From a virus (lineage: Duplodnaviria; Caudoviricetes), in IMG/VR virus record IMGVR_UViG_3300020045_002682, positions 1 to 47,902 of that record: a stretch of DNA of 47,902 nt. One strand, given 5' to 3'. Shown here piece by piece: positions 2,133 through 47,019 of the stretch. A program made the translations under genes and the position numbers. The notes under the pieces are model-generated. The model was not told where the DNA came from and made no database searches. It was given only the letters and a program-made list of their open reading frames with translations. Position 1 is the first letter of the stretch, and each line of letters starts with the position of its first letter.

Positions 2133-2163
2133 GGGGTGCGCTCCTTCTATGCGTGCCGAGCCC

Positions 2164-2236: not shown

Positions 2237-2257
2237 GGGAAGGAAGGAGAAGTGAAA

Positions 2258-5229: not shown

Positions 5230-6099
5230 ATGATAGAACAACGCACACCCGAATGGCACGAACAACGTAAAAACCGCGTAACCGGCAGCATCTGCGGAGC
5301 CATCCTCGGGTTGTCCCCCTACATGACCCGCGCAGACGCGATGCGTAGCATGGTGCGCGCCAGTCTAGGAGAGCCTTCTGAATTTTCCGGAAACGTGGCG
5401 ACGGATTGGGGAACCGCAAACGAACCCACGGCCATTACCGATTTTGAAATGGATACCGGAATTACGGTCGAGCCTGCGCCGTTCGTCATGTTTGAAGACT
5501 GGCTTGGAGCCAGCCCGGACGGATATACCAGTGACGGCGGGCTAATTGAGGTAAAAGCCCCTTACTCACTGCGCAAGGCATCACATCCCGTTCCATTCAA
5601 GAGCATCGACGATCAGGAGCACTACGCAGCACAAATCCAAGTACAGCTTTTTGTTACAGAACGCGATTTCTGCCATTTCTGGCAGTGGACGCCTGCGGAT
5701 ACCAGCCATGTTATTGTGCGCCGGGACGATGAATGGCTTGCGCAGAATATCTCACGCCTCAAGCAGTTCTACGCCGAATTCCTGGACGACCTAGCATACC
5801 CAGAGGAACACCTAGCCCCCAAGCGCGCCACAATCGACACCCCAGCAGCGGCCAGAGCCGTAGCAGAATGGGACACGCTATGCGAGCAAATCGACAACCT
5901 CACGGATCGCAAGAAGGATTTGCTTGCCGAGATGGTCGCCATGTCTGGTGATAAGAATGCCTTGCTTGCTGGGCGTAAGTTGACTAAGGTTGAGCGCGCT
6001 GGCGCTATCTCATACGCTAAAGCGATTGCCGAGTTAGCGTCGGAAGCGAATTTGGAAAAATGGCGCGGGAAAGCGTCGGCTAGTTGGAAGCTTACGTGA
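5230..6099 (+). CDS. YqaJ / lambda-exonuclease family recombination nuclease
   Basis: EQRTPEWHEQR..VTGS, WLGASPDG, LIEVKAP, YAAQIQVQL. Confidence 0.92.
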   Translation: MIEQRTPEWHEQRKNRVTGSICGAILGLSPYMTRADAMRSMVRASLGEPSEFSGNVATDWGTANEPTAITDFEMDTGITVEPAPFVMFEDWLGASPDGYTSDGGLIEVKAPYSLRKASHPVPFKSIDDQEHYAAQIQVQLFVTERDFCHFWQWTPADTSHVIVRRDDEWLAQNISRLKQFYAEFLDDLAYPEEHLAPKRATIDTPAAARAVAEWDTLCEQIDNLTDRKKDLLAEMVAMSGDKNALLAGRKLTKVERAGAISYAKAIAELASEANLEKWRGKASASWKLT

Positions 6100-6821
6100 T
6101 GAAACTAATGCATGGCGACTGCCTTGAATTGATGCTGGAACTGCCCGATGCCAGCGTGGACATGGTGCTGTGCGATCTGCCGTATGGGACGACCTCTTGC
6201 GCGTGGGATAGCGTAATCCCATTCGAACCGTTGTGGGCGCAGTATAAGCGGATAGCCAAGCCGAACGCAGCTATGGTTTTAACCGCCGCGCAGCCGTTCA
6301 CCACCGCATTGATCGCCAGCAACATGCGTGATTTCCGCTATTGCCTGGTATGGGACAAAGTTGGGACCACCGGGTTCCAGACCGCCAAGGTTATGCCCCT
6401 GCGCCGCCATGAAGATATTTGCGTATTCTATGGCGCAAAGCCGCCTTACAATCCGGCGATGGAGACGCGGGGAGCGCCCCGCAAAAAGGGCGGCAGTCAG
6501 ACGGATAATGGTTGCTATGGCGATCTGCGCAGCACGGAAAGTTTCAACAATTCCTATTATCCCACGTCGATAATCCAGGTTTCGAATGCTTCGAAACGCG
6601 GACTGGTCCATCCGACGCAAAAACCTGTCGCGCTAATGGAATACCTAATCCGCACCTACACGAACCCCGGCGACACCGTCCTCGATAACTGCATGGGCAG
6701 CGGAACCACCGGCGTGGCGTGCGTGAACACTGGCCGCGACTTCGTCGGGATTGAGCGTGACGATAAGTATTTCGAAATTGCGCGCGAGCGGATTCAGGGT
6801 GCTAAAGGAAAACTGCTATGA
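6099..6821 (+). CDS. DNA methyltransferase, N6_N4_Mtase (beta-class)
   Basis: GDCLE, CDLPYG, HPTQKPVAL, VLDNCMGSGTTG; TGATG coupling to the exonuclease. Confidence 0.92.
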   Translation: MKLMHGDCLELMLELPDASVDMVLCDLPYGTTSCAWDSVIPFEPLWAQYKRIAKPNAAMVLTAAQPFTTALIASNMRDFRYCLVWDKVGTTGFQTAKVMPLRRHEDICVFYGAKPPYNPAMETRGAPRKKGGSQTDNGCYGDLRSTESFNNSYYPTSIIQVSNASKRGLVHPTQKPVALMEYLIRTYTNPGDTVLDNCMGSGTTGVACVNTGRDFVGIERDDKYFEIARERIQGAKGKLL

Positions 6822-7516
6822 AATATATGGGATCGAAAGCGCGACACGCTAAGGAACTTCTGCCGATCATCCTTGCTAATCGCAAGTTTGGTCAGTGTTA
6901 TATTGAGCCGTTTGTAGGCGGCGCTAATATGATTGATAAGGTTGATGGGTTGAGGATTGGCTCTGATGCTCATCCGCACCTCATTGCCTTGTGGCGCGCT
7001 GTTTCTGACGGATGGGAGCCTCCTACAGAGGTTAGTGAGACTGAGTATGCCGAGGCGCGCAAGGCCAACCTAGTAGATGCCTTGACTGGGTTTATTGGGT
7101 TTGGGGCATCGTATTCTGGAAAGTGGTGGGGAGGTTACGCTCGCGGCGATAAACCTGACGGCACACCTAGAAACTATGCCGCCGAAAGTTGCCGCAACAT
7201 AATGAAACAAGCACCAAACCTTCGTGGCGTAGAGTTTCACAACTTGAAATACCAGGATTTGGAAATCCCCCCACAATCCATAATATACTGTGACCCGCCA
7301 TATGCAGGCACTACCGGCTATAAGACAGGTTCATTCGATCATGCCGAGTTCTGGCAGTGGTGCGATGCGCGTCACGATGAAGGTCATACTGTGTTCGTCA
7401 GTGAGTACACCGCGCCAGATCACTGGCAGTGCGTATGGCAGAAGGTTGTGAACAACACGCTTGTTCGTGACACCGGCTCCAAGACTGGTGTTGAGAAGCT
7501 GTTTACGCGGGCATAA
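6818..7516 (+). CDS. DNA adenine methyltransferase, Dam/D12-like
   Basis: MKYMGSK, YIEPFVGG, IYCDPPY, VFVSEY. Confidence 0.9.
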   Translation: MKYMGSKARHAKELLPIILANRKFGQCYIEPFVGGANMIDKVDGLRIGSDAHPHLIALWRAVSDGWEPPTEVSETEYAEARKANLVDALTGFIGFGASYSGKWWGGYARGDKPDGTPRNYAAESCRNIMKQAPNLRGVEFHNLKYQDLEIPPQSIIYCDPPYAGTTGYKTGSFDHAEFWQWCDARHDEGHTVFVSEYTAPDHWQCVWQKVVNNTLVRDTGSKTGVEKLFTRA

Positions 7517-13262: not shown

Positions 13263-13418
13263 ATGCATAAAAAAATCACCAGCACCATCAACGCGCGCCG
13301 TGAAATGTCCGTCCATCAAATTATCGCGGCGCTACCTGATTGCCAACCATGCCTTGAGCGCATGATAGATCATGGCGCGCTTCGGGTTACTGGCGCTTTG
13401 AGGCTCAGGGTAAAATGA
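13263..13418 (+). CDS. Small hypothetical protein
   Basis: AGGA RBS; ATGA coupling to the sigma gene. Confidence 0.5.
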   Translation: MHKKITSTINARREMSVHQIIAALPDCQPCLERMIDHGALRVTGALRLRVK

Positions 13419-13900
13419 CATACGAGCAGATGTATAAACGCTATTACCGGGATGTGCTATGGTACATGCAGCGCAAGTGCAATCCTGTTATCCTAGACCC
13501 CCTTGAAGTGACGCAAGATGTTTTCCTGCGTGCATGGAAAGAGTGGGGCAACAGGATGCAGGACGACATCAAGCGTTGGCTTTTTACCCTCTCTAAAAGA
13601 GTTCTGTGGTATGTTAGTAAATACGCATACGCGCAGAAGAAACAAAGTAATGGCATTTGCGCTTGGGATGAACAATCCGACACCCGTAACGTAAGGGCTA
13701 CTCAGGAGGATTCAGTGCTCTTGAGGCAGCTTGACATAGCTATTGACAATCTGCCTGAAGCGCAGCGTTATGCTATGCGCGGCGCCATGCAGGGGCTTAA
13801 CAATAAAGAGATTGCCGATATGAAAGGCAATGTCTCCATCCAGGCTATATTCGGCTCCTTGCAATCAGCACGCAAAAAACTGCTCTTGATAACGGAATAA
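13415..13900 (+). CDS. ECF-type RNA polymerase sigma factor
   Basis: Region 2: YEQMYKRYY...EVTQDVFLRAW...KRWLFTLSKR; region 4: IDNLPEAQRYA..GLNNKEIADM...LQSARKKL. Confidence 0.82.
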   Translation: MTYEQMYKRYYRDVLWYMQRKCNPVILDPLEVTQDVFLRAWKEWGNRMQDDIKRWLFTLSKRVLWYVSKYAYAQKKQSNGICAWDEQSDTRNVRATQEDSVLLRQLDIAIDNLPEAQRYAMRGAMQGLNNKEIADMKGNVSIQAIFGSLQSARKKLLLITE

Positions 13901-13902
13901 AT

Positions 13903-14907
13903 ATGACAATTAGCAAAGTTGGATTAACGACACCTTCAGTGGGCTACAAGCCATTCCGGTATGGGCAGGCGTATGAATACTGGCAGACACAGCAACGAGT
14001 GCATTGGCTTGCGGAGGAGGTGCCTTTAGGACAAGACTGCCAGCAATGGATTGATGGCACACTTTCGCCTGAAGAAAAGAATTTGCTGACGCAGATTTTT
14101 AAGTATTTCACGCAGGCTGACATTGAAGTGCAGAATTGCTACCATGAGCAATATGGCAAAGTCTTTAAGCCTACAGAAGTAAAGATGATGCTTGCGGCAT
14201 TTTCGAATGCCGAGACTATCCATGTTGCAGCATATTCGCATCTTATCGACACTATCGGCATGGATGAGTCGCAGTACAGTGCGTTCATGGACCTTGAGGC
14301 CATGCGTGATAAGCATGACTACATGCAGCAATTTGGCGTTGAAAGCGACGCTGCGATTCTAACTACCCTCGCTTGCTTTGGGGCCTTTACCGAAGGTTTG
14401 CAGCTTTTTGCCAGTTTTGCAATGCTGCTAAACTTCCAGCGATTTAACAAGATGAAGGGCATGGGCCAGATCGTAACATGGTCCGTCCGGGATGAAAGCC
14501 TGCACTGTGAAGGTATTATCTGGCTGTTTCACCAGTTTGCCCGCGAAACAGGCGCACTCACAAATGAAGTCAAAGAGGCTATCATTCAGCACTGCCGCAA
14601 TGTCGTGGCGCTTGAAGATAAGTTTATCGACTTGGTTTTTGAGATGGGTGGTGTTAAAGGCATGGAGCCTGGAGACATAAAGCAATATATCCGGTTCATT
14701 GCGGATTGGCGTCTAGGCCAACTGGGTCTTGAGCCAATCTATCTTATTGAAGATCACCCATTGCCATGGCTTCAGCCCATCCTTAACGGAGTTGAGCATG
14801 CTAACTTTTTCGAGGCTCGCGCCACCGAGTATTCAAAGGCTGCTACAACCGGAACATGGCAAGACACTTGGGCAAACTTTGACAGCAGGAAGATTATTCA
14901 TGGATGA
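13903..14907 (+). CDS. nrdB: Ribonucleotide reductase class Ia beta subunit
   Basis: HWLAEEVPL, FTQADIEV, AETIHVAAYSHL (metal ligands and radical Tyr), FTEGLQLFASF, RDESLH, HANFFEARATEY. Confidence 0.95.
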   Translation: MTISKVGLTTPSVGYKPFRYGQAYEYWQTQQRVHWLAEEVPLGQDCQQWIDGTLSPEEKNLLTQIFKYFTQADIEVQNCYHEQYGKVFKPTEVKMMLAAFSNAETIHVAAYSHLIDTIGMDESQYSAFMDLEAMRDKHDYMQQFGVESDAAILTTLACFGAFTEGLQLFASFAMLLNFQRFNKMKGMGQIVTWSVRDESLHCEGIIWLFHQFARETGALTNEVKEAIIQHCRNVVALEDKFIDLVFEMGGVKGMEPGDIKQYIRFIADWRLGQLGLEPIYLIEDHPLPWLQPILNGVEHANFFEARATEYSKAATTGTWQDTWANFDSRKIIHG

Positions 14908-22552: not shown

Positions 22553-22792
22553 TTAGATTACCGCCGTTAAGTCAACTTCTTGCGAGGCTCCGCTGCCATA
22601 ATCATTGGCTGGAGTAACCTTGACTGTAAACGCGGCCCATGGCCCCCCTGCTGCGGTTATCTGCTCGGATGTAATTGTAAACGAGGTTCCGTAAACTACA
22701 AACGCAAGCACTGTACCCGCTTCAGTCGGCGGGTAATAACCCGGATCGCCGGGTTCCGGTACGGGGTCTTCAGGGTCTACAGGTATTGCCAT
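22553..22792 (-). CDS. Small tail-associated protein (C-terminal half of an Fn3-like domain)
   Basis: TSFTIT..GGP..FTVKVTPANDYGSG; TAATG overlap with the upstream tail gene. Confidence 0.6.
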   Translation of the reverse strand: MAIPVDPEDPVPEPGDPGYYPPTEAGTVLAFVVYGTSFTITSEQITAAGGPWAAFTVKVTPANDYGSGASQEVDLTAVI

Positions 22793-28474: not shown

Positions 28475-28715
28475 TTAACCCCCGACTATGCCAGACTTAC
28501 CGCGATGAGCATCAAGGAACCGCCCCAACCGCTCATGGTCAACTTCTTTGCTCGCGCCCTCGCTGGATGAATTATGAGCCTCTAGTGCCTCGAAATATCC
28601 AGACATTGACAACGTTGCCCAGTCCAGGTGCATGGCCCCGCAGTTTGCAATCAACTTACCCTTATTGAAGGGCTCTAAGGGCTTGTCGCCCCTGTTGGAT
28701 TTTGATCTTTTTTTT
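28475..28715 (-). CDS. Tail assembly chaperone GT extension via -1 frameshift
   Basis: A8 run (28708-28715) read GAA AAA AAA; the -1 frame is open to TAA at 28475. Confidence 0.75.
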
Positions 28716-29552: not shown

Positions 29553-29615
29553 CGTGTGTTCTCCGGTGACATTGTGGGTGACATTAGGTTATGTGGTGTG
29601 TATAATTTACCGTTA

Positions 29616-32432: not shown

Positions 32433-32471
32433 AAAAAAGGGGCTGGCAACGATTACCGCCACCAACCCCTT
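32433..32471 (-). terminator. Intrinsic terminator after the major capsid gene
   Basis: GGGGTTGGTGGCG-GTAAT-CGTTGCCAGCCCC-TTTTTT. Confidence 0.8.
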
Positions 32472-35034: not shown

Positions 35035-35132
35035 TAAAGCCCGTATCGCACTTATGACGATACGGGCTTACCGCTATTTACCTAAATAGAGATGAAATCC
35101 TAACCGCAAACATGAAGATAGAGTTGTATATT

Positions 35133-35525
35133 TTACGAATCATCATGGACGCCCCAGAACGAATAGTCAGAGACCTGCCATTTTACGCCATGCGGATCAT
35201 CTTTCCATAAATGGCTAGTTTTGCTTCCATCATCTGCGTTGATACTAAACAGGGCGCTATTGGCCTCGATAACCTCATAACGCTTTCCTGGAGTGATATA
35301 ACTCCGCGCCGATTCCGGGACTTCGTGGGCGACCGCGTAGATTCCGGCATCTTGACTAACCACCTCAAGCTGGCCTTCATTATAAATATGCAGCGCCCCT
35401 TCAGTGCCCTCAGATGTAGACTCGACCACAAGCCTGCGCGCGCCCGCAAGGTTCGTGAAATCCGCCACGATAACACCGGGCCATGCGTAACCTTTGGTCT
35501 TGCGAACCTTATCGCCCATTTTCAT
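35133..35525 (-). CDS. DfrB (R67 DHFR)-like SH3 domain fused to a second small domain
   Basis: GDKVRKTKGYAWPGVIV...VVES...LHIY..QLE resembles R67 GDRVRKKSGAAWQGQIV...AVES...VQIY..ALE. Confidence 0.55.
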   Translation of the reverse strand: MKMGDKVRKTKGYAWPGVIVADFTNLAGARRLVVESTSEGTEGALHIYNEGQLEVVSQDAGIYAVAHEVPESARSYITPGKRYEVIEANSALFSINADDGSKTSHLWKDDPHGVKWQVSDYSFWGVHDDS

Positions 35526-35641
35526 TTTGCATTCTCCATACATTGAAGCCAAAAACCTGCCACACCCGCAAGAGCGTGTCAACCCCTCATTTTATGGTTG
35601 CGCTGGCTGGCGGGTGGCGTTATGGGGTGGACGGAAGGATA

Positions 35642-38784: not shown

Positions 38785-38883
38785 GGTGCGAGCGTATTAT
38801 ATGGAGTTGGTTCATTTTACCGCTTGCGTGTTGGTTAGGTGTGTGCGATAGGGGGCGCAGGACTTAACGAAAGGACAACAATC

Positions 38884-41713: not shown

Positions 41714-41944
41714 CTAGCGTGAATTAAGGTCAGGACGGTATGCGCCGATCTTAGTCCAGTCCGTCTTAGGCGGCTCAAGGCGCTTAGGCTGCGGAATAGC
41801 TGCATACCTACCCTTGCTCGCATCCCATCCGAATTTTTCGGCCATAGCATGAACTCCGTAACGTGGGGTACTGCAAATATTGCAGCGCCCAGCCACAATG
41901 ATAAGGATATGCCCGCAGAATGGGCAATGACATAGGCTAACCAT
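41714..41944 (-). CDS. Zinc-ribbon hypothetical protein
   Basis: CPFCG...CNIC. Confidence 0.55.
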   Translation of the reverse strand: MVSLCHCPFCGHILIIVAGRCNICSTPRYGVHAMAEKFGWDASKGRYAAIPQPKRLEPPKTDWTKIGAYRPDLNSR

Positions 41945-42485
41945 ATGCTTGGTCTTCGTCAATTATGTTAACGCCCACGCATTGCGCCACCTCCATAAAC
42001 TGCTCCCGAGCCGCAGGCGTTGCCCGGTTCCATGCCCGGATGATGTGTGTGGCAAGCGTGCTGTCCACATCGTCATCCTCGAACATCTCGCCGTGCGTAT
42101 AGCGATGCTGGGTGACAGCCTCCCGCAAGTCCTGCGGCTTTAACTTCTCCACGCTTGCTTTCTTGAGAAGGGCTAGGCCCTCATCCTGCGGTAGCGATGC
42201 CACGATGGCATGATGCTCCACAGACAGCGTGCGGTCGCGCAATGCAGGCGGGAACCTGTCAGCTGCCTTGCTCGCGTCCTTCAGAGCCTTCGGGCTAATG
42301 CCTAGCTGCTCTGACAGGAAATCGAACTTGGTCTGCTCCAGGTAGCCAGCTTGTTTGCCGGTGTGCATCCATTCCGCAAGGGACCAATCTAGTTCTCGGC
42401 GCTTGCCTACTAGGGTGCGACCTTCTTCGATCCAGGTTAGGGCTTCTTCGGGGAGGGTGACAGAGTGGATAAGGGCTGGGGTCAT
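41937..42485 (-). CDS. LmbU-like putative DNA-binding regulator
   Basis: WSLAEW...LGISPKALKDA...FP..LRDRTLSVEHHAIVASL..LLKKA....LREAV. Confidence 0.55.
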   Translation of the reverse strand: MTPALIHSVTLPEEALTWIEEGRTLVGKRRELDWSLAEWMHTGKQAGYLEQTKFDFLSEQLGISPKALKDASKAADRFPPALRDRTLSVEHHAIVASLPQDEGLALLKKASVEKLKPQDLREAVTQHRYTHGEMFEDDDVDSTLATHIIRAWNRATPAAREQFMEVAQCVGVNIIDEDQAYG

Positions 42486-42793
42486 TAATCCTGCCCCATC
42501 ATAAGAAGCATAACGGCGTAAAATGTGGCCTTGTCGTACTCATCCTTCCACAGATAATAGATGGTTGAGATTGCACTAGCGATAGCCACTACAGCCTTAA
42601 AAATCTCCATCACTTCCCCCTCTTAACAAACCGCCCATCAGCCCCGCGTGCCGGGAGTGTGGATAGTTCCTTGATGATTGCGCGCATCCGGGCGACTTCA
42701 CTAGCCTTTATGGCGTAGAGTTTACCGGGAATGATTGTGGTTAGGGTTAGGTCGGTCATGATTTACTCCTTCGTCTTCGCTATGCGCGGTTGC

Positions 42794-43511: not shown

Positions 43512-43565
43512 GTCGTGTTCTCCTTCTCGGCCATGGCTATACCAGGATTGCGGGGATGTAAAGGG

Positions 43566-45112: not shown

Positions 45113-45519
45113 CGCACGTCTCCTGTTACGATTTCACACTTGTAGCGACTCATAAAAGTTATGTCAAGGGGTGCATTCATGATTAGTTGTCCCGAATCCG
45201 TGGAAGTCCCGCGCGTGCACATATATTTGCTTTCCTGACAGAATAAATAGAAATATATAAATGATGTACTTAGTCTTCTCAGGCGATAGTGACAACTCGG
45301 ACAGAAAACATAGGAGTGAATAGGAGTTTGGCTTGGAAACTGTCAAAAGTGTCCTGTAATGTGGGTTTATGAACGATTGTTCACGTCCTATTATTACCCG
45401 GATAATATTCCGATTAATACCCGGATAAAAACATCGTGCTTCCATAGCCGGTCCACCGCAAAATAATCCCTTGACCGCATCCAGGCGCTAGGGCATGGAG
45501 CGCTGAGAAGGAGATTGAC
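45113..45519. other. Largest non-coding region: divergent early promoters, AT-rich core, direct repeats (candidate ori/pac)
   Basis: TACCCGGATAA at 45395 and 45418; ATAGGAGT twice; TTGACC at 45471. Confidence 0.5.
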
Positions 45520-45747
45520 ATGCGAGTGAAGAACTGGACTAAGGGTGAGTGGTTGGCTCATGGCCCCTATGTTGATTTTGGGATCGAGTACGCCGCCGAT
45601 GTCGGGCCTGCCAACGCCCAACTAATCTCGGCAGCACCTGAACTGGTCGAGGCGCTGGAGGGTATGCTAGACCCGGATATGAGCATGAGAGAGGCTATCT
45701 GCATAGCCGAACGCGCCCTAGCCAAAGCCTATGGAGAAAAGGTATGA
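45520..45747 (+). CDS. Hypothetical early protein (ANAxLIxAAPEL family)
   Basis: GAGAAGGAG RBS. Confidence 0.75.
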   Translation: MRVKNWTKGEWLAHGPYVDFGIEYAADVGPANAQLISAAPELVEALEGMLDPDMSMREAICIAERALAKAYGEKV

Positions 45748-45962
45748 ACATGATTGAGCGAGTGCAGGAAGCGATATGGCAGATAGGAGCCGCTAACGAC
45801 ATAACCCAAGAGGATGCGCGTCATCTAGCCCGCGCTGCTATCGAGGCGATGCTGGAGCCTACGCAGGGTATGGAGCAGGCTGGCTTTAGGGTGCAGCAAT
45901 GGGAGCATGGCCTTATTGGCGCTTACCAATCCATGATCCGCGCAGCACTGGAGGAAAGCTAA
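45744..45962 (+). CDS. Hypothetical early protein (ARAAIEAMxEPT family)
   Basis: ATGA coupling. Confidence 0.75.
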   Translation: MNMIERVQEAIWQIGAANDITQEDARHLARAAIEAMLEPTQGMEQAGFRVQQWEHGLIGAYQSMIRAALEES

Positions 45963-46089
45963 TGCTATACGCAGAAAAATCATACGCAGGCCCCGACGCA
46001 TGGGGTAGGACGTTCCATGCCACGCACTACTGGCACATCGCGGCTTGGAAGGAGCATGAGCGGGTTAAGGCAAAGAAGGAGAAAATGAA

Positions 46090-46638
46090 GTGAGTGACAT
46101 TTTAATCAAGGCAGACATTTTTGAAGCCGCATCGCTTTGTATGTCAAAAAATAAAATCCGCTACTACCTTGAAGGAATCCATCTTGGAGGGGGTAGGCTA
46201 ACCGCAACCGATGGGCACCGCATTTTCACGGCAGATCAGGAAACGGGCGAAGAACTTATCATCCCGGCATGGGTGGTTAAGATCGCCATGAAGGATATCA
46301 AAAATGCTGGCTCCGTAATCCTGCGCGGACATGAACTTATCGTTGGAGATAAAGGTTTTTGGTTTACGCCTATCGACGCCGCATACCCAGACTACAAGCG
46401 CGCAATCCCGGCTGAAATGGGCGAGGAAAAAGCCGCGCACTTCGATCCTAAATACTATGCCGATCTAGGCAAGATGGCTAAGATTTTGACCGGAAGCACG
46501 ACGGGCTTTGATATCAAGCATAATGGCGAAGCACCATGCGGCGTACTGTTCGGTGATAGGGAGGACTGCCTAGCAGTTATCATGCCGGTTAGGCAGAATA
46601 ATAGGCGGGTCTGGAAGGGCCTGCGAACCGCACCATAA
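46090..46638 (+). CDS. Truncated DNA polymerase III beta-clamp-like protein
   Basis: RYYLEGI, ATDGHR, IDAAYPDYKRAIP, FDPKY, VIMPVR. Confidence 0.75.
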   Translation: MSDILIKADIFEAASLCMSKNKIRYYLEGIHLGGGRLTATDGHRIFTADQETGEELIIPAWVVKIAMKDIKNAGSVILRGHELIVGDKGFWFTPIDAAYPDYKRAIPAEMGEEKAAHFDPKYYADLGKMAKILTGSTTGFDIKHNGEAPCGVLFGDREDCLAVIMPVRQNNRRVWKGLRTAP

Positions 46639-46689
46639 AAAAGGGCCTCCCGCAAAGGAGGCCCCTAAGTTTATATAGAGAAGGAGTGC
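46637..46689 (-). ncRNA. Candidate anti-SD small RNA (~53 nt)
   Basis: GCACUCCUUCUCUAUAUAAACUUAG followed by a GGGCCUCC/GGAGGCCC stem and U6; CGGTAG-18-CTA box upstream. Confidence 0.5.
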
Positions 46690-46734
46690 GGGCAAGGTAG
46701 CTGCAAAAAATATGCCCGCTACCGCTTTTAGGTG

Positions 46735-46763
46735 TTGACGGCTGGATGGTGTGGGTTCATAAG
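46735..46763 (+). promoter_or_regulatory. Early sigma70-like promoter
   Basis: AGGTGTTGACG-17-CATAAG. Confidence 0.7.
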
Positions 46764-46794
46764 GGGTTCACAGAGACGGAATGGAGTGAAAACA

Positions 46795-47019
46795 ATGTGG
46801 ACCCGCAGCGCACGTAAGCCCGAAGGTTTCCTGGTCGAAGTTAATGACTGGAACGGCAAGATGGTTCACTCAGCTTGGTATCAGACCGTTGCTGAGGCGC
46901 AGGAAGCGGGGCAACATTGGGAACGCTTAGTAACTCTCGGCCTTGTGGATGGGGAGCCTGTCATGACGCTGGATGAAATAATGAGCGATGATGACTTGCT
47001 CGCAGAACTTCTAGGATAA
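46795..47019 (+). CDS. Hypothetical early protein
   Basis: GGAG RBS; own promoter and terminator. Confidence 0.7.
   Translation: MWTRSARKPEGFLVEVNDWNGKMVHSAWYQTVAEAQEAGQHWERLVTLGLVDGEPVMTLDEIMSDDDLLAELLG

Follow-up and report, generated by a model that had tools for sequence, protein, structure and literature searches.

Between two plus-strand early genes of a tailed phage lies a short region whose minus strand raises the question of whether it encodes a small RNA (sRNA) and, if so, which mRNAs such an RNA would act on. An earlier note had proposed a late-expressed sRNA with an anti-Shine-Dalgarno (anti-SD) segment that could switch off SD-led early genes. The window analysed here is the whole stretch of 47,902 nt, a complete 47.9-kb tailed-phage record with direct terminal repeats. 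The features discussed are collected in Table 1.

Table 1. Candidate sRNA locus, late-type promoter sites and predicted target ribosome-binding sites (RBSs), in window coordinates.
Feature	Position	Strand	Remarks
Predicted sRNA, 51 nt	46637..46687	-	start A46687 predicted from promoter spacing
Anti-SD seed ACUCCUUCUCU	46677..46687	-	single-stranded in 51- and 68-nt forms, unpaired probability 0.9-1.0
UAAACUU linker	46667..46673	-	directly 5' of terminator stem, as in alphaR8 RNAs
Intrinsic terminator	46637..46664	-	8-bp GC stem 46664-46643 and U6 46642-46637
Beta-clamp-like gene, convergent, upstream	46090..46638	+	RBS 46074-46081 is a predicted target
7-bp inverted repeat across putative sRNA promoter	46688..46719		would form a 5' hairpin in an RNA with a more upstream start
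Sigma70-type promoter TTGACG-17-CATAAG of gene 46795-47019	46735..46763	+	divergent, back to back with putative sRNA promoter
CGGTAG, -35-like box of late-type promoter	46719..46724	-	one base off structural-gene CGGTAA
GCTA, -10-like element	46698..46701	-	TA 20-21 nt past box, matching structural-gene sites
CGGTAA box, portal gene	38817..38822	-	32 nt before ATG (no SD)
CGGTAA box, head protease gene	35068..35073	-	33 nt before ATG (no SD)
CGGTAA box, major tail protein gene	29607..29612	-	upstream; short leader with SD
CGGTAA box, tape-measure gene	28497..28502	-	30 nt before ATG
CGGTAA box, tail gene 22524	22558..22563	-	33 nt before gene (no SD)
ECF-like sigma factor, 161 aa	13415..13900	+	PHROG E 1.3e-9; Pfam r2 E 5.7e-5; Atlas
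Predicted target RBS GAGAAGGAG, gene 45520	45505..45513	+	first after sigma70-type promoter; net -13.8 kcal/mol
Predicted target RBS GAGAAGGAG, gene 43511	43520..43528	-	first after sigma70-type promoter; net -13.9 kcal/mol
Predicted target RBS, 49-aa gene starting 42759	42765..42772	-	net -13.1 kcal/mol
Predicted target RBS, primase-helicase	2141..2148	-	net -9.9 kcal/mol
Predicted target RBS, gene 2258	2243..2249	+	first of plus-strand replication cluster; net -12.8 kcal/mol

According to PHROG matches, the primase-helicase and the replication cluster occupy 1-14.9 kb, a virion and lysis block lies on the minus strand at 15.2-41.2 kb, and clusters of short genes fill 41.2-47.6 kb; among the PHROG families shown, none of the 86 scanned ORFs matched an integrase. 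The capsid protein is 75-78% identical to those of prophages in Novosphingobium, Sphingobium and Rhizobium, and the host would be alphaproteobacterial, probably a sphingomonad. Seven early promoters, picked by hand, are sigma70-like with a 17-nt spacer.

Some further genes deserve mention in their own right. The phage encodes two DNA methyltransferases in tandem, and the small subunit of a ribonucleotide reductase whose large subunit was not found among the 86 scanned ORFs (both observations refer jointly to ORFs 13903-14907 (+) and 6084-7516 (+)). Within the head module, the possible ORF 35133-35582 (-), which overlaps ORFs on the plus strand, matches R67 dihydrofolate reductase at 24.7 bits, just short of the Pfam threshold of 25; either strand may be the coding one there. 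Of the phage loci fetched, 30 carry a relative of the 182-aa gene at 41937-42485 (-), as a rule directly upstream of the terminase; the gene belongs to no Pfam family, and its look-alikes are helical and ParB-HTH-like.

The elements that the earlier note had described on the minus strand are all present. CGGTAG is followed 18 nt on by CTA, the sole such match on either strand; the segment opening with GCACUCCUUCUC begins 8 nt downstream of CTA and leads into the GC stem and its U6 tail. No ORF fits: the only minus-strand frames over the segment, of 41 and 66 aa, start with TTG, lack an SD and extend across the terminator. The minus-strand fold is much stronger than that of shuffled sequences (z -3.7), mainly owing to the terminator, and in the 51-nt form the 5' half is fully exposed, leaving the seed unpaired. 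The U-tail and the AU-rich stretch before the stem are presumably Hfq features, and the RNA may thus make use of Hfq.

The terminator is one-sided. A U-run follows the hairpin on the minus strand only, while the plus-strand tail holds 3 U in 8 nt, unlike the other gene-following terminators of this phage. The closest upstream minus-strand gene stop is 723 nt away, with two other terminators in between. Nine sites in the window passed the terminator rule: five lie at most 26 nt behind a gene on the same strand, and the other four, all minus-strand sites distant from a gene, are two reverse faces of bidirectional terminators, a hairpin at the protease promoter and the candidate hairpin.

There might nevertheless be no sRNA at all, the hairpin being the stem at the 3' end of the plus-strand operon 45520-46638, where it would act as a weak terminator or block nucleases, and the seed the remnant of a plus-strand RBS; its gene would have been lost, and the early consensus would have been kept by descent. 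The stop codon of the clamp-like gene indeed overlaps the A/U run of the terminator, and the stem starts right after it, with its AA inside the A-run; moreover, GAGAAGGAG is common to the early cassettes of this phage, and terminator-type Rfam models give 20-26 bits on neighbouring ordinary terminators. A relic RBS would also yield the same rank of the seed among its variants (see below) and would agree with the failure of the viral and metagenome scans to find the candidate conserved. On the other hand, a plus-strand terminator has to make do with the U-poor tail, the plus-strand GGAG has neither a start codon 4-12 nt behind it nor a promoter before it, and chance would have to account both for a late-type box at the correct spacing and for a rare linker. 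We consider this explanation rather unlikely, and a real sRNA probable.

The promoter-like box had been equated with a motif preceding structural genes that lack SDs. A CGGTAA-type box does stand before five structural genes, and the candidate box scores like them. As to the SDs, many internal structural genes do carry one, and a leaderless look is confined to some first cistrons (portal, protease and tail gene 22524), so that the leaderless-late-mRNA element of the claim was overstated. CGGTAR is found 28-36 nt before the ATG in 4/29 structural genes against 0.12 expected, CGGTAA shows a strand bias of 20:5, and a de novo search for 5-mers at promoter distance puts GGTAA first (5/37 long ORFs, 18-fold). 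CGGTAG alone is not enriched in number (19 seen, 15.3 expected), and the candidate box carries a G where all five structural sites have an A. With a late-promoter matrix built on the five sites, from which a CGGTAA at 32458 was left out as lying inside a terminator loop, the candidate box ranks 8-17 of 95,720 positions, and held-out true sites rank 4-22. No sigma70-like site is directed into the terminator, the best one on the minus strand ranking 322; an alternative -10, CATATT at 46714-46709, comes without a -35. The spacing from box to start places the predicted start at A46687 and thereby gives the 51-nt RNA.

The ECF-like sigma factor of the phage would be the protein that reads the CGGTAA late promoters, and transcription of the candidate would then also be late. 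Eleven relatives of this sigma factor were found at E <=1e-10 among protein representatives, and a protein search gave one relative of 70% identity, on a 1.7-kb contig. The clade (~160 aa) had no match among GenBank phages and was not found in 50 alphaR8-bearing records or in 50 capsid- or terminase-related records; two phages with distant sigma relatives share no box and have no RF00519 match.

Independently of the sRNA, this 48-kb phage combines an ECF-like sigma factor of its own with a CGGTAA-N19-22-TA box that lies 30-34 nt ahead of structural ATGs, several of them SD-less. The sigma factor at 13415-13900 and the boxes at 38822, 35073, 29612, 28502 and 22563 may make up a late regulon that includes leaderless mRNAs. 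Of the CGGTAR sites, three are located within or next to inverted repeats or terminator hairpins (35039-35067, 32439-32469 and 46688-46719), and a 10-bp inverted repeat spanning the protease promoter could be an operator or the terminator of the upstream ORF.

The earlier note had compared the candidate with alphaproteobacterial sRNAs of the AbcR and MmgR/suhB type. The latter belong to the alphaR8 family (RF00519, suhB), known from MmgR of Sinorhizobium meliloti, SuhB of Sphingopyxis granuli and SisA-D of Caulobacter crescentus. An Rfam search showed the likeness to be real, suhB being the best match by E-value, and placed the candidate below the family threshold (25.4 bits, E 0.012, against a gathering cut-off of 41). 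The suhB match of this window was the best among 38 phage records. When RF00519 was run on 48 of 80 terminase loci, 2/48 related records outscored the candidate (34 and 30.5 bits), both in unrelated places. These two matches, likewise sub-threshold, lie past the gene next downstream of the capsid gene (L483:1501-1587 (-) and L484:1501-1575 (-)); the one in L483 is a stand-alone unit preceded by a first terminator, possibly a further diverged sRNA.

The candidate shares with alphaR8 RNAs the short length and an unpaired C/U-rich anti-SD stretch, and it resembles them in its 3' half, where the UA(A/G)ACUU linker is followed by a stem that opens with GGGCC; a rho-independent terminator preceded by UARACUU is itself a criterion of the family. 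The linker is rare elsewhere: TARACTT precedes the stem in 13/40 host alphaR8 copies, against 1/253 host and 0/116 phage control terminators, and TARACTT together with CTCCT was found in none of the controls. The candidate differs in the core and its surroundings. The family decamer, UUUCCUCCCU, which is single-stranded (PMC12559287), is replaced by ACUCCUUCUCU, and the weak hairpin directly before the core is absent in its GCCC/GGGC form; a 7-bp hairpin 5' of the candidate core is of another kind and would require a transcript that begins above the predicted 5' end. The candidate also follows a late-type box of the phage, no integrase is recognised in this phage, and the seed fits the phage's own RBSs. 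For SisA and SuhB, repression by pairing at SD regions has been described (PMC12559287, 10.64898/2025.12.09.693200), and by its sequence the candidate would resemble alphaR8 in mode of action without belonging to the family.

Among sphingomonads, 58 of the 61 genomes searched had an alphaR8 match, and the copies end in core, linker and terminator. Of 40 host copies, 28 have one core type and 12 the other; ACUCCUUCUCU is in neither. The second core, CAUCCUCUCC, stands behind a GCC-UUUCA-GGC hairpin, often in tandem arrays (L064-L079, L095, L097).

Canonical alphaR8 copies are also common in viral contigs: the core was found at 120 loci among the matches listed, and 12 of the 20 tested pass the Rfam cut-off. 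Like the candidate they are located in phages, with GCGGTAG about as far from the linker, and they keep the decamer, itself the selection criterion of the scan, which the candidate lacks. A model, R1, was built from 33 of 36 selected phage copies (L162, L210 and L226 were excluded for doubtful ends). Under it the candidate received the highest score of the window (19.4 bits) and of 38 phage records (17 against 11.1 bits), with true host members at 51-57 bits against 17-19 for the candidate; the copies had been selected for GCGG and the decamer, and these columns are thus conserved by construction. A terminator-free HMM of 33 phage copies gave no match to the candidate (2.7 bits, E 44). Descent from, or mimicry of, a host alphaR8 RNA of the SuhB/MmgR type, with linker and terminator kept and the seed changed, has in our judgement about an even chance of being correct.

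The viral copies bring in another possibility, namely a longer RNA (~88-93 nt) starting upstream of GCGGUAG, in which this motif would not be a promoter box; it would be the 5' arm of the extra hairpin of phage alphaR8 copies, or an ops-like pause element. GCGGTRG occurs 32-61 nt before the core in 25/107 distinct viral copies against 2/415 background windows, its distance to the linker in the candidate (52 nt) falls within that of the viral copies (39-69 nt), and R1 aligns a 5' hairpin at the candidate. However, no promoter-like minus-strand site was found further upstream, the best having the rank of 322 given above, and in the 93-nt form the seed is mostly paired. The GCGGTRG type moreover goes with a NusG-like gene, present in 15/25 records with GCGGTRG copies (L162-L263) against 2/25 without; in the candidate phage PF02357 (NusG) had no match, and an ECF-like sigma factor is found instead. 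We take GCGGTRG to resemble the RfaH ops element, and in those viral loci it may be the loading site of a NusG paralogue. An ops/NusG leader was rejected for the candidate, given the lack of a PF02357 match and a 182-aa gene before the terminase that looks helical and not NusG-like. A longer RNA is in our view quite improbable, and we keep to the 51-nt form with a late-type promoter.

A homologue of the candidate was found neither in viral contigs (three pattern scans) nor in the metagenome, genome and GenBank phage searches, and hence conservation and covariation lend it no support. The first viral scan gave 0 matches, and a scan of genomes also 0; the second viral scan gave two, both ordinary terminators, and the third 38, none passing the terminator rule. 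The metagenome scan gave 25 matches, in which no terminator was seen by eye. The clamp-like protein had no relatives covering the sRNA locus in viral contigs, nor any as an alignment in metagenomes; a protein search returned one relative of 88% identity, on a 727-bp contig. In a DNA run with pieces of a related phage, 46600-46863 was not covered.

All evidence for the candidate comes from one genome, with tests chosen once the site was known. The four RBS complements listed in the earlier note were found in place (GAGAAGGAG at 45505 (+) and 43528 (-), AGAAGGAG at 2148 (-) and GAAGGAGT at 42772 (-)), and two more were added, at 46074 (+) and 2243 (+). With 38 genes classed as non-structural ("early") and 33 as structural, an assignment of our own by position and function and not by measured timing, perfect seed pairing of at least 7 nt was observed in 6/38 non-structural and 0/33 structural start regions; of two controls, the canonical alphaR8 core reached this length in 1/38 non-structural regions and the 16S tail likewise in 1/38. 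The seed duplex energies of early and late genes differ (p=0.006). After the cost of opening, the net energy is -9.9 to -13.9 kcal/mol at the six RBSs and -4 or weaker at six structural starts tested. Pairing of -12 kcal/mol or stronger was found, in a hand tally, at 5/8 first cistrons of sigma70-type promoters versus 3/30 other non-structural genes (p=0.005).

The complementarity is thus selective, and it is the extended part of the seed that makes it so. Structural genes with GGAG or AAGGAG SDs pair weakly to the seed, so that selectivity comes mainly from the extended GAGA part; since many structural genes have SDs, it cannot rest on leaderless translation alone. Against nine AGGAG-led early RBSs, the UCUC extension of CUCCU ranks 1/256 (1/16 among C/U-only extensions). 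The match is partly generic, as GAAGGAG is common in RBSs of other alphaproteobacterial phages (18/134 AGGAG-led starts, with 7/23 and 6/24 in two records), although the longer AGA and GAGA forms are rare there; in an annotation-free count it was found at 29/340 in the host and 6/25 in the window. A figure of 1/900 host genes was dropped as an artefact of start-codon choice. In a related-phage contig (depth 2.6, perhaps an error) the 45505 RBS has one change, by which part of the GAGA extension is gone.

The seed also resembles the 3' tail of host 16S rRNA, and a real sRNA might act mainly on host mRNAs. It would then be a diverged copy of alphaR8 that either reprograms carbon and uptake genes of the host or vies with host SuhB for Hfq, and its fit to RBSs of the phage would be a by-product of its anti-SD nature. 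Host alphaR8 RNAs do repress host mRNAs via anti-SD cores (PMC12559287, 10.64898/2025.12.09.693200), and the frequency of canonical copies in viral contigs would suit such a role. The seed, however, has moved off both host core types toward a phage RBS context that is rare in AGGAG-led starts of the host (AGA in 5/215, GAGA in 1/215). We regard a mainly host-directed RNA as rather unlikely. Silencing of host translation, as proposed in the earlier note, is possible and not favoured, because the GAGA-AGGAG context is found in only that one host start in 215.

Our preferred explanation is a stand-alone trans-acting sRNA of ~51 nt, transcribed late by the phage's ECF-like sigma factor, whose exposed ACUCCUUCUCU would pair over GAGAAGGAG-type RBSs of the phage's own early and replication genes. 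Translation of early genes would be dampened and the virion genes left alone; as several predicted targets head sigma70-type operons, the block could also be polar. That the segment is a late sRNA silencing the phage's own early genes we rate at slightly below an even chance. The fuller scenario is more doubtful, though possible: a lytic phage would have captured a host alphaR8-type sRNA, placed it behind its own ECF sigma late promoter and retuned the seed to the RBS shared by its early operons, thereby gaining an RNA-only translational switch from early to late that spares virion mRNAs, with their weaker SDs or lack of a leader.

Known phage RNAs offer partial parallels. The lytic Pseudomonas phage PAK_P3 has two intergenic sRNAs, sRNA1 and sRNA2, that are abundant late, and for sRNA1 a single target was predicted in the phage, an early ORFan (PMC4933390); unlike the candidate they are ~100 nt long, act in a gammaproteobacterial host and have a putative function, and the accessible part of that report describes no anti-SD seed directed against many early RBSs. 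The base-pairing phage RNAs c4 (P1/P7), sar (P22), OOP and LPR1/PreS (lambda), of which c4 pairs around an RBS (PMC12197685, 10.1101/2024.10.31.621285), have one or few targets (antirepressor, cII, host dnaN) and are linked to lysogeny or replication; in the accessible parts of these sources none is described as a multi-target early off-switch. In a literature search that reached few subscription journals, neither an alphaR8 copy in a phage nor a late anti-SD RNA silencing early phage genes came up.

Proteins are usually held responsible when lytic phages shut off their early genes. If the proposed role is true, one small RNA acting over an RBS common to many early operons would be a compact alternative to them. 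The prediction is sharp, naming one seed, one sigma factor and six RBSs, and, if true, would give a testable purpose to the many unannotated alphaR8-like RNAs of phages.
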